The position numbers and the translations under genes were made by a program. A DNA stretch of 5,538 nucleotides from a virus. The notes below the pieces were generated by a model, which saw only the letters and a program-made list of their open reading frames with translations, did no database searches and had not been told where the DNA came from. Where the stretch lies: positions 1 to 5,538 of the IMG/VR virus record IMGVR_UViG_3300045988_000806; one strand, given 5' to 3'. Below, piece by piece: positions 1,731-5,538 of this stretch; within the stretch, counting starts at the first letter, position 1, and each line of letters opens with the position of its first letter.

Positions 1731-1755
1731 TTAATAATAAAAATAATAATATAAT
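1731..1755. other. 25-nt pure A/T tract (candidate DNA unwinding element)
   Basis: TTAATAATAAAAATAATAATATAAT contains no G or C. It lies between the iteron/DnaA-box array and the GC-rich block. Confidence 0.5.
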
Positions 1756-1796
1756 GCACGTGCGCGTGCGCGATCACGTGCGCGTGCGCGTGCATT
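1753..1796. repeat. GC-rich alternating purine/pyrimidine block: tandem 16-mer and imperfect palindrome
   Basis: CACGTGCGCGTGCGCG occurs at 1757..1772 and again at 1775..1790, separated by AT. Purine/pyrimidine alternation is perfect over 1754..1772 and 1775..1795. The arms 1753..1772 and 1777..1796 pair as 16 Watson-Crick plus 4 G.T pairs around an ATCA loop. Confidence 0.85.
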
Positions 1797-3818: not shown

Positions 3819-5486
3819 TTAGTGGTGATCTACGAGTCCCGGAATGCTGTACATGGGCATCGGTCTGACGCTGGTGTTGTCTATGACAGTGTCCATGATA
3901 AATTGCGGTTCGTTTTCTACTGCGAGAGTTCTCTGGATTTCGGAGTCTCCTTCCTTCATCCATGCTTGACTTAGGTTTGGGATGCTCGTGTAATAGTCGC
4001 CGTAGTGCCAAACATCCAGCGATCCTTTTGCGTTACTGCGGAATTTGCCACAGATACGGTTTGGTTTCATTCTGTATTCGGCCCAACACTCTTGGTAGCC
4101 GAATGCCTGTTCGTCGGTTTCCGTGCCCGTTAAGTAGATTTCCTTCTTGAGGATTGCTTGTTCACCCAGATTTGCGAATACAGGATAGTAAAAGTCGAGG
4201 TTTGTTTTGCGACTCCACATCCTTTCGAGTCCCTGTTGGTAGGTATGATCATGCCGGATGCAGCATACGCCGATAACATAGCCGTGTTCTTCGAAGCTCT
4301 TCGTGAACATGCTGCCGTTGTATGGTGTGACGGACACTGCTGCAGTGTTACCCTGCGGACTCTCTGCGGTCGTGCCGCTGGTCTGAATAACCTGACTCAT
4401 GTTGATGGTGATTCGCGTACCGCCTAGGTACTCCGGAATCTGTACAGTTTTGTCTGAAATCTTCGTATGGAACAAACTGTAAATCATCTCGCGGTATCTG
4501 CTGCCGCCGCGCGCGAGTTGTTCGTAGTATTTTTGTACCTGAAAAGCCTGTCTCAGCTGGTTGATAGTCGTTGCGTTTACTTTGCTCATGTCTGTGTATA
4601 AGTCCATGTTTCCGTAGTAATACGTATCGTCGCTTTTGTACCAACCGTTGATAGTGATTGACGTATCTTCGTTGTTGGAGATATTGCTGCTTTGGCCGTT
4701 TCTGGTAATAAATTCCAGCGTTTCCGGCTCTTTTTCGTCGCTGTTGTATTTGTAACCGTATATTGGTGCTTTACCGCTCAGCGGGATTGTTACCGGTTTT
4801 CCTGTTTTCTGCGCACTTGGTAACGCGCTGGTGAAGTAGTCGTGGAATTTGTTGACCGGCAGCGGTCTGCCGCCTTCGTAAGCGTACTTTAAATTATCTT
4901 CTATGTTTTTGTCGTCTCCGGTGTCTTGATACAGTTCTGTCGCGTCATCGAAGAAATTAATTGCTGGATTGTCTACGTTCTGATCTCTGAACCACTCTTG
5001 CCATATCATTGCGTAGGCTCTGAATGGGAGTGCGTTTACTTCAAATTCTGTATTTTCGTCTTTGCATACTTTCGTCGGAATTCCCATGTAATCCATGAGG
5101 CTTCCTTCCAGCGGCAAGGCATTGCCGCTGGTGCTTGCTTTGACTCTGATTTGTGGTACTGTGTATTCTTGCGTTTGCGCCCACGGCCCGGTGTCGTTTT
5201 CTCCCATAAACCGTTTCCAGTTTTTCCACAAGATGCGGTTCGGTGTGAAAAAGTAGTAGATGTCCATATAACAGTTGTCCATAACTGGGAAGATTGGAGT
5301 TGTCATACGGATAATCGCCGCTTGATCAATACTAAAAGTATCACCCGGTAGGACTTCATCCACGTAAAACGGGATTAGCTGTCCTGCGTTCAGTGTTAAT
5401 TTGACGTCTTGTCGTCTCTTGAAGCGGCTTCGCGTGATGTCCAAGCGTGGGACTTGGTTGAATCCTGCGTCTTTGTTTCTGTTCAC
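3819..5486 (-). CDS. VP1: Major capsid protein VP1 (555 aa, GTG start)
   Basis: Conserved gokushovirus VP1 blocks are present: [60 protein letters not shown], and IPEYLGG. The size is typical. GGAGG (5494..5498) lies 7 nt upstream of the GTG at 5484..5486, and an in-frame TGA lies 27 nt further upstream. Confidence 0.97.
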
Positions 5487-5538
5487 TGTTTTGCCTCCGT
5501 TTTTTCTGCCGGTTCAGGCGTTTTTGCTTCGGCTTGCT
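5462..5538. repeat. Terminal direct repeat, copy 2 (circular-contig overlap)
   Basis: Identical to 1..77. Confidence 0.95.

Follow-up and report, generated by a model that had tools for sequence, protein, structure and literature searches.

The viral DNA analysed here, a stretch of 5,538 nucleotides (nt) from IMG/VR record IMGVR_UViG_3300045988_000806 (hereafter the window), carries in its non-coding region a GC-rich block of alternating CG and TG steps at positions 1753–1796 of the + strand. Comparison with relatives revealed that the block is a conserved hairpin, fully pairable only on the strand that carries the nick motif CTTG/ATAG (named N; in the window the + strand, antisense to all genes), and that it evolves by compensatory and G·T-neutral transitions. 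Its polarity relative to N was kept even where the position of the block, or the orientation of the neighbouring module resembling a bacterial chromosomal origin (oriC), had changed. The explanation that we favour, with a probability of roughly 0.45, is that the block is a conserved replication-origin hairpin that would act in the single-stranded DNA (ssDNA) of N as a complementary-strand origin, functionally similar to the single-strand origins (sso) of plasmids.

A conserved hairpin that pairs on one strand

The block, AATGCACGTGCGCGTGCGCGATCACGTGCGCGTGCGCGTGCATT, is an imperfect palindrome with arms at 1753–1772 and 1777–1796 and an ATCA loop at 1773–1776. The hairpin on the + strand comprises 20 pairs, 16 Watson–Crick and four G·T, and folding of both strands as ssDNA bore out the strand asymmetry that an initial annotation of the window had described, with −21.8 kcal/mol (z −4.0) for the + strand vs −14.9 kcal/mol (z −1.0) for the − strand. 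The corresponding RNA folds reached −39.2 (z −5.4) and, for the − (sense) strand, −23.9 kcal/mol (z −1.8). The two perfect 16-nt direct repeats and the near-continuous alternation that had been reported were also recovered. Copies of the 16-mer CACGTGCGCGTGCGCG lie at 1757–1772 and 1775–1790, in a comparison in which dinucleotide-preserving shuffles averaged 0.01 matches and none of 200 reached two, and strict purine/pyrimidine runs of 19–21 bp, CpG-rich, cover 1754–1772 and 1775–1795. GC content rises from about 0.27 to 0.50 at the block and then falls back; the description of the flanks as pure A/T DNA holds on the left (about 1731–1755), but the right flank is AT-rich without being pure. 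No open reading frame (ORF) of at least 40 amino acids (aa) overlaps the block, in agreement with the earlier statement that no coding feature explains it, and the sole Rfam match on the palindrome was a sub-threshold and meaningless one to mir-297.

Conservation was assessed in 14 GenBank relatives and 80 IMG/VR loci found through VP4 at 56–96% identity; the VP4 of KT264801, used as a query, returned only three distant loci, which were left out of the analysis. An alternating (CG/TG)n imperfect palindrome was present at the same place in 75 of the 76 relatives having both flanking anchors, in 55 distinct versions; one relative (L091) had no block and another (L090) carried it as a tandem duplication. 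The initial annotation had allowed that the block might be missing from close relatives or be an assembly or chimera artefact. It is not an assembly artefact, because a homologous block occupies the same place in many IMG/VR contigs and in independent GenBank genomes, which come from faeces of humans, pigs and monkeys in China and France. The primary sequence is variable, with only 10 of 40 columns invariant among the 36 equal-length 40-nt versions; what was kept across versions is the position, the pairing, a small loop rich in T and the alternation of purines and pyrimidines (1924 of 1980 steps, 97%). The CACGTG sites (1757, 1775 and 1821) and the central GATC (1772–1775) that had been singled out are indeed present, but they are unique to the window, as are the perfect 16-mers and the GATC/ATCA loop, and the third CACGTG falls within an insertion that close relatives do not have. 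The loops of relatives read ATTA (most), TTT or CTAY, and their T positions differ.

Analysis of the pairing revealed that all 648 cells of the 36 versions are standard pairs on the + strand, compared with 93.6% in shuffles, none of which (0/500) reached 100%, and with 76.2% of cells when the same versions were read on the reverse strand. Changes on both sides of the stem were found at 10 of 18 pairs, in 68 cells, and a swap from pyrimidine–purine to purine–pyrimidine at none of the 18. Over all 55 versions the + strand contains 821 Watson–Crick, 216 G·T and 8 A·C pairs, its TG:CA dinucleotide ratio is 286:76, and it folds better than its complement in 54 versions, by a mean of 5.3 kcal/mol. 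The complete pairing, the doubly compensated cells and the lack of A·C drift indicate that purifying selection acts on the structure of the block, and on one strand only. A mutational bias (C>T on ssDNA) was rejected as the sole cause of the TG excess, since the genome-wide rare-allele spectrum of 30 close genomes was symmetric, with rates of 0.129 for C>T and 0.122 for G>A per ancestral base. The same spectrum was uninformative as a test of virion polarity.

Nick hairpin, strand polarity and the second clade

Downstream of the block, a stem-loop at 1858–1897 on the + strand (fold z −5.8) holds the nick-type motif CTTGATAG (1876–1883) in its loop and 3′ arm and is directly followed by TGACACC (1897–1903). 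We take this motif to fit the phiX174 origin CAACTTG/ATATTAATAAC as well as the pC194 type. CTTGATA is the conserved nick site within the dso (double-strand origin) of pC194-type Rep proteins (PMC10378824), and the pC194 dso itself reads CTTATCTTG/ATA (PMC5037232). The stem-loop is a putative dso for VP4/Rep that reads on the gene-antisense strand, with a nick predicted, from the analogy to phiX174 and pC194, at G1879/A1880. Its loop is invariant in relatives, and its stems compensate (CTCAGCC/GGCTGAG, CTCCGCC/GGCGGAG, GTGGGCCTAATCC/GGATTAGGCCCAC and TAGCCCAGTACC/GGTACTGGGCTA); the wobble bias is mild here, at 63 G·T vs 24 A·C, and varies with the drawing of the inner stem. Clade-1 genomes have the block 59–215 nt 5′ of the nick motif on N. 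A small hairpin, TGACAC-CAAA-GTGTCA (1897–1913, +), stands right after the nick hairpin and overlaps the VP4 stop codon; its TGACAC half is conserved in all relatives.

The initial annotation had equated the coding strand with the virion strand. This did not hold up, as the nick motif CTTGATAG with the TGACACC that follows it, the G·T-tolerant fold and the excess of T over A are all on the non-coding (+) strand. The nick hairpin is opposite the strand of the longest ORF in the window and in 41 other microvirus contigs. Chlamydia phage Chp2 exhibits the same architecture on its coding strand (stem, TCTACTTGATC, stem, GTGATAGC), and a nick hairpin on the coding strand was also found in three IMG/VR microviruses (L395, L400 and L394); the L097 locus, at about 2900–2950, is listed with these nick hairpins. 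The T>A skew goes with the motif strand whichever way the genes point: T and A make up 0.364 and 0.184 of the + strand of the window, 0.34 and 0.26 of the coding strand of L395/L400, 0.252 and 0.220 in L394, and 0.304 and 0.286 in Chp2. SpV4 exhibited no clear origin hairpin, and its CTTGATA matches were at the chance level for its composition. From nick motif, wobble polarity and skew together, N probably is both nicked by VP4 and packaged.

A second clade, the KT264784-like phages, carries the oriC-like module on the coding strand, inverted relative to the window and located between VP2 and VP4, and its nick hairpin again reads on the non-coding strand. The block of this clade occupies two or three positions: in some genomes it separates the module from the nick hairpin, in others it lies upstream of the box cluster; in KT264801 the module is inverted in place and the block is on the box side. 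In every case the only non-Watson–Crick pairs of these blocks are A·C on the coding strand, that is, G·T on N. Across both clades the polarity of the block thus tracks the nick strand and not the genes, the oriC-like module or the AT-rich tract of that module; the block is flexible in position and not universally required. Other members of the clade have a canonical post-VP2 terminator, GGGGGATG-GCAAAA-CATCCCCC-TTTTTT, with its wobble pairs on the coding strand, which is an internal control for how an RNA-level hairpin looks in these genomes.

Relative to the window, the module of L218, L219, L220 and L221–L290 was seen in either orientation to the genes and the nick hairpin, in slots after VP2 or after VP4. 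These varying orientations and slots argue that the origin region is modular and rearranges. Extra G-run/C-run hairpins were also found at various points of the origin region in L009, L011, L013, L074, L082 and L219, with L237–L282 listed as well; these non-coding regions often gain and lose GC hairpins.

Candidate roles of the block

An orientation fixed to the nicked strand, a flexible position and pairability on that strand only mean that the block behaves as an element acting in single-stranded form. Among the roles that the initial annotation had put forward, that of a structural origin element fits best, as the block is situated between the oriC-like module of DnaA boxes, trios and AT-rich tract and the hairpin with the Rep nick site. 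Complementary-strand origins are the known jobs of such hairpins in rolling-circle replicons, as in primosome assembly in phiX174 and in the minus-strand origins of G4 and M13. In plasmids, sso elements are located near the dso and are strand-specific (PMC5037232), and such conserved intergenic hairpins, reported for other microviruses, are expected in all of them for initiating the complementary strand (PMC9865509). In the mechanism that we propose, VP4 would nick N, displace it and hand it to the capsid; on N coated with single-stranded DNA-binding protein (SSB), the very stable (CG/TG)n stem with its small T-rich loop would remain duplex. The block would then be an SSB-resistant structural landmark of the complementary-strand origin, at which host priming or helicase-loading proteins would assemble and convert the ssDNA to the double-stranded replicative form. 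More speculatively, the ssDNA might mimic a pre-opened chromosomal origin, its single-stranded TnnT/trio stretch recruiting host initiation proteins. The adjacent module points, again speculatively, to the host chromosomal initiation machinery (DnaA, and DnaD in Firmicutes) as the partner. It is suggestive that the block is near-universal in the clade whose N has the CTA repeats (the strand of the DnaD element) and patchy where N has TAG instead (the strand of the DnaA-trios).

The likeness to known systems is partial. Like the sso of rolling-circle plasmids (ssoA/ssoU/ssoT/ssoW, palA), the block is a non-coding imperfect hairpin on the presumably displaced strand near the Rep nick site, its structure is strand- and orientation-specific, and the accompanying phage nick motif is of the pC194 type (CTTGATA); unlike them, it measures ~44 nt instead of ~150–200 nt, consists of alternating CG/TG and lies 3′ of the nick site in one clade. 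Like the phiX174 primosome assembly site (the n′/PriA hairpin), G4 ori-c and the M13/f1 minus-strand origins, it is an intergenic hairpin of an ssDNA phage; those hairpins are SSB-resistant and direct complementary-strand priming, as the block would. In contrast to those hairpins, with which it has no sequence similarity, it is antisense to the genes, its host is probably a Firmicute and not E. coli, and it adjoins DnaA boxes and trios, which are absent from those phages.

Several observations weigh against a complementary-strand origin. The alternating block was found in only 13 of 52 distinct upstream regions of KT264784-like phages, KX513876 has none between its oriC-like module and nick hairpin, and L091 does without it despite having both anchors, so that some lineages can dispense with it. 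The KT264784 block is located about 30 nt 3′ of the nick hairpin on N, and a rule by which an sso is exposed last is therefore not general. The block is short (about 44 nt), the ssoA signature CS-6 (TAGCGW) is absent from the whole window (RSB was not searched), and beyond its hairpin shape the block exhibited no likeness to known primosome or primase sites. Nor does stability by itself predict the conserved wobble pairs near the loop (T13·G28 in 33 and G16·T25 in 27 of 36 versions), and the 97% alternation, which is more than a plain hairpin needs, may reflect an additional or different constraint. Alternation may also be kept passively, because only transition paths have a stable G·T intermediate. 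Furthermore, we infer that N is the packaged strand solely from motif polarity, wobble asymmetry and base skew, and phiMH2K likewise has an A-rich coding strand, and no origin hairpin was found in it.

The Z-DNA-prone sequence had also suggested a duplex role, in which Z-DNA or a cruciform in the supercoiled replicative form would be a supercoil-sensitive switch or sink tuning the opening of the AT tract or nick hairpin. Such a switch is physically plausible: a rough two-state estimate for a 5.46-kb circle placed the B–Z transition of each arm at a superhelical density (sigma) of about −0.04, easier than cruciform extrusion (about −0.07) or melting of the AT tract, the alternation was kept at 97% in 55 versions and two clades, and the block abuts the AT tract in most clade-1 genomes. 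As in Z-DNA-forming d(CG)n/d(TG)n tracts, there are two CpG-rich alternating runs; unlike such tracts, the block evolves strand-asymmetrically, with G·T tolerated and A·C excluded, and is a palindrome with a conserved small loop that Z-DNA does not need. A duplex property is strand-symmetric and cannot yield 216 G·T vs 8 A·C or TG:CA of 286:76; TG steps lower the Z propensity and A·C mismatches weaken the cruciform, so that neither looks optimised. Moreover, the critical sigma estimated here equals or exceeds what is usually taken as the unconstrained superhelicity in vivo, and the L014, L076-type, L219 and L236-type genomes have no adjacency of block and AT tract. We therefore regard this duplex role as unlikely, and the missing adjacency in the same genomes weakened the candidate role of a boundary or clamp of the AT-rich unwinding element. 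An accessory element for Rep (VP4), either a binding site or a rolling-circle pause or termination signal near the nick site on the displaced strand, comparable to the distal pMV158 ‘bind’ locus or the iterons of CRESS viruses, would fit the constant sharing of non-coding region and strand with the nick hairpin, the two perfect direct repeats in the window and the two conserved wobble positions near the loop, which could be recognition features. We consider it quite unlikely, as phages with VP4 proteins 93–96% identical have blocks that differ at many positions (10 of 40 columns being invariant), including the T positions, the distance and side relative to the nick hairpin vary (59–215 nt 5′, 30 nt 3′, or past the box cluster), and many relatives with a similar Rep have no block. 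The Rep recognition site in the form of iterons, one of the roles first suggested, was rejected, since only the window genome has the perfect 16-mer pair, the GATC and the CACGTG sites.

A hairpin insert born by slippage or selfish in nature, without function for the phage, would account for the patchy and position-variable occurrence in the second clade (13/52), the tandem duplication in L090, the loss in L091 and the other, unrelated GC hairpins inserted at various points in relatives, given that (CG)n can expand by replication slippage. Nevertheless, presence in 75 of 76 clade-1 relatives, 100% pairing on one strand with 68 doubly compensated cells and no A·C drift, a single copy per genome and a strand polarity fixed relative to the nick motif make a neutral insert very unlikely. 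Slightly less credible still is a Rho-independent terminator of the VP1–VP2–VP4 unit, in which the sense mRNA (− strand) would form the GC hairpin ahead of a U-rich tail. The block is suitably placed for it, downstream of VP4 and before the next promoter-like site, a simple scan flagged a sub-hairpin plus ATTATATTAT on the − strand as a weak match, and the sense RNA folds to −23.9 kcal/mol before UAUAUUAUUAUUUUUAUU. A terminator is possible in the window genome alone but fails comparatively: mismatches make up 24% of the pair cells of the sense strand and the fold is no better than shuffles (z −1.0 as DNA, −1.8 as RNA), no U-tract follows the block in L014 and L076-type genomes, the genuine terminators of sister phages have the opposite wobble polarity, and the nick hairpin with ATTTTATT already stands directly after the VP4 stop. 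Some gokushoviruses integrate at dif, and an imperfect palindrome in a non-coding region could be a folded-ssDNA substrate of the XerCD/dif type or an att site, as the initial annotation had also considered. This role is largely refuted and hardly credible: a search of 185,579 bacterial and archaeal species (one genome each) yielded no VP4 relative, so that no prophage relatives emerged there; plasmids, searched by blastn with the block, returned only matches at chance level, in GC-rich genes; its 17-nt core occurred in 36 microvirus-sized and 7 large contigs, about the chance level; and the block sequence is too variable for the core of a site-specific recombinase.

A wider and doubtful interpretation is that the one-sided G·T tolerance of the block reports virion polarity. 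This large group of gut gokushoviruses would then nick, displace and package the gene-antisense strand, thus being negative-sense microviruses that arose via inversion of the origin cassette, and would synthesise the complementary strand from a host-oriC mimic with the (CG/TG)n hairpin as its strand-specific partner. If this is true, Microviridae could no longer all be assumed to be positive-sense, with effects on how strand-aware virome libraries are interpreted and on primer and probe design. More surprising as leads than the block itself are its oriC-like surroundings and the apparent packaging of the antisense strand. Gokushoviruses rank with the most abundant gut ssDNA phages, and most of them, including this group, are uncultured; the block, the host-oriC-like module and the pC194/phiX-type nick hairpin together provide a concrete, testable map of the origin region for second-strand synthesis.

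The oriC-like module and genomic setting

The module beside the block spans 1529–1755. It begins with a cluster of co-oriented DnaA-box-like 9-mers (1529–1704, +), conserved in relatives, that includes exact matches to TTWTNCACA (TTTTCCACA at 1529 and 1558 and the perfect TTATCCACA at 1622, all on the + strand) besides many TTTCAACA variants, and that ends in the trio-proximal 9-mers TATTCAACA (1688–1696, +) and ATTTCAACA (1696–1704, +). A GC-rich spacer of 4 nt, CTCC (1705–1708), and (CTA)5 (1709–1723) follow on the + strand; the repeat reads as DnaA-trios (3′-GAT-5′) on the − strand and as TnnT repeats, the DnaD recognition element, on the + strand. The AT-rich tract CAACAAGTTAATAATAAAAATAATAATATAAT (1724–1755) then leads from the trios to the GC block, in the place of a DNA unwinding element, and its position is conserved in relatives. 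When the whole non-coding region was folded on the + strand, this stretch of boxes, trios and AT tract was mostly unpaired between stable hairpins, of which the GC block was the strongest.

The bacterial basal unwinding system consists of a DnaA box, a short GC spacer, at least three 3′-GAT-5′ trios and an AT-rich element, the box having at most 2 mismatches to TTATCCACA and lying within 16 bp of the trios (PMC8287927). The window has at least three NAN trios (consensus 3′-GAT-5′) followed by an AT-rich tract. Its proximal box, ATTTCAACA, is 4 nt from the trios and degenerate, with 3 mismatches to TTATCCACA and 2 to TTWTNCACA, and its exact boxes are at least 78 nt upstream of the trios; in the relatives L011, L013 and L219 a clean TTTTCCACA is followed after 4 nt by CTACTACTAC. 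The top strand of the B. subtilis oriC reads 5′-CTACTATTACTTCTACTA-3′, where DnaD binds the TnnT repeats (PMC10201434), and the C. difficile counterpart reads 5′-CACCTACTACTATTACTACTATGA-3′ (PMC7561715). A chromosomal scan of one genome per bacterial species with the pattern GTAGTAGTAG-N2-6-TGTGGAWAA returned at least 120 loci, mostly from Clostridia, Streptococcus, Lachnospira, Ruminococcus and cyanobacteria. Of these, 80 were read; the spacer was exactly 4 nt in 72, with tandem boxes upstream and an AT tract downstream, and an ORF of ~370 aa started within 260 nt downstream in 50, all three ORFs tested being dnaN. In Clostridia oriC, TTxTCAACA variants accompany the consensus boxes. None of the chromosomal origins examined had a (CG/TG)n hairpin after the AT tract.

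The predicted module has the architecture of a bacterial basal unwinding system, its co-oriented boxes, the spacer of 4 nt, the five CTA/GAT trios and the AT tract being arranged as upstream of dnaN. It differs from a bacterial oriC in being carried by a 5.5-kb ssDNA phage, in its degenerate proximal box and in an orientation relative to the nick strand that flips between clades. The resemblance of this DnaA-trio/DnaD-element mimic to the origins of Clostridia and other Firmicutes suggests that the microvirus uses the chromosomal initiator, and it hints at Firmicutes as hosts. No earlier description of DnaA boxes, an origin hairpin or polarity was found in the gokushovirus and Microviridae literature searched. 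One contig assigned to a Ruminococcus sp. metagenome-assembled genome (L113, 8,186 nt) reads TTTTCCACA-cccc-CTACTACTACAACAATAAATAT with the continuation CTACTACAACAA, nearer to the CTACTACAACAAGTTAAT of the phage than other bacterial origins are; the contig may point to the host or be a mis-binned piece of phage. The box cluster also contains a conserved 8-bp hairpin, TGCACAAA-GGTT-TTTGTGCA (1573–1592, +), whose stem consists of two inverted DnaA-box-like sequences and would as ssDNA give a duplex box; close relatives keep the stem and vary the loop. It recalls the DnaA-dependent ‘A-site’ primosome hairpins.

The window is a complete circular gokushovirus genome with a true length of 5,460 nt, as its bases 1–78 recur at 5461–5538, and such terminal identity of contig ends is the usual assembly signature of a circular genome. 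In GenBank, its nearest relatives are gokushoviruses of the gut, obtained from human, pig and monkey faeces, with ~77–83% nucleotide identity. All recognisable genes are on the − strand: the major capsid protein VP1 (5486–3819; Pfam Phage_F, E 7e-143), VP2 (3772–2930), VP4/Rep (2929–1910; REP_ORF2-G2P), VP5 (733–494) and the scaffold protein VP3 (582–22). The block sits in a ~530-nt non-coding region (about 1380–1909) that extends from the VP4 stop to a strong match to a sigma-70-like promoter, TTGAAA-16-TATAAT (1392–1419, −; 11 of 12 matches), which faces VP5, VP3 and small ORFs that are located downstream of it, also on the − strand. Between the block and the nick hairpin, the window contains a specific insertion of ~50 nt (1797–1846, +), absent from the closest relatives, with the third CACGTG (1821–1826) and two TGATAAC repeats. 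The same spacer contains TGATAG, TGAATAG or TGATAC repeats in distant relatives (e.g. L010 and L075) and the palindrome TTATCACGTGATAA in L012; these spacer repeats, including the palindrome, may be Rep-binding repeats. At the far end of the non-coding region, a further GC-rich hairpin, GTCATGCGCT...AGAGCATGAC (1448–1487, −), lies beside the promoter match.

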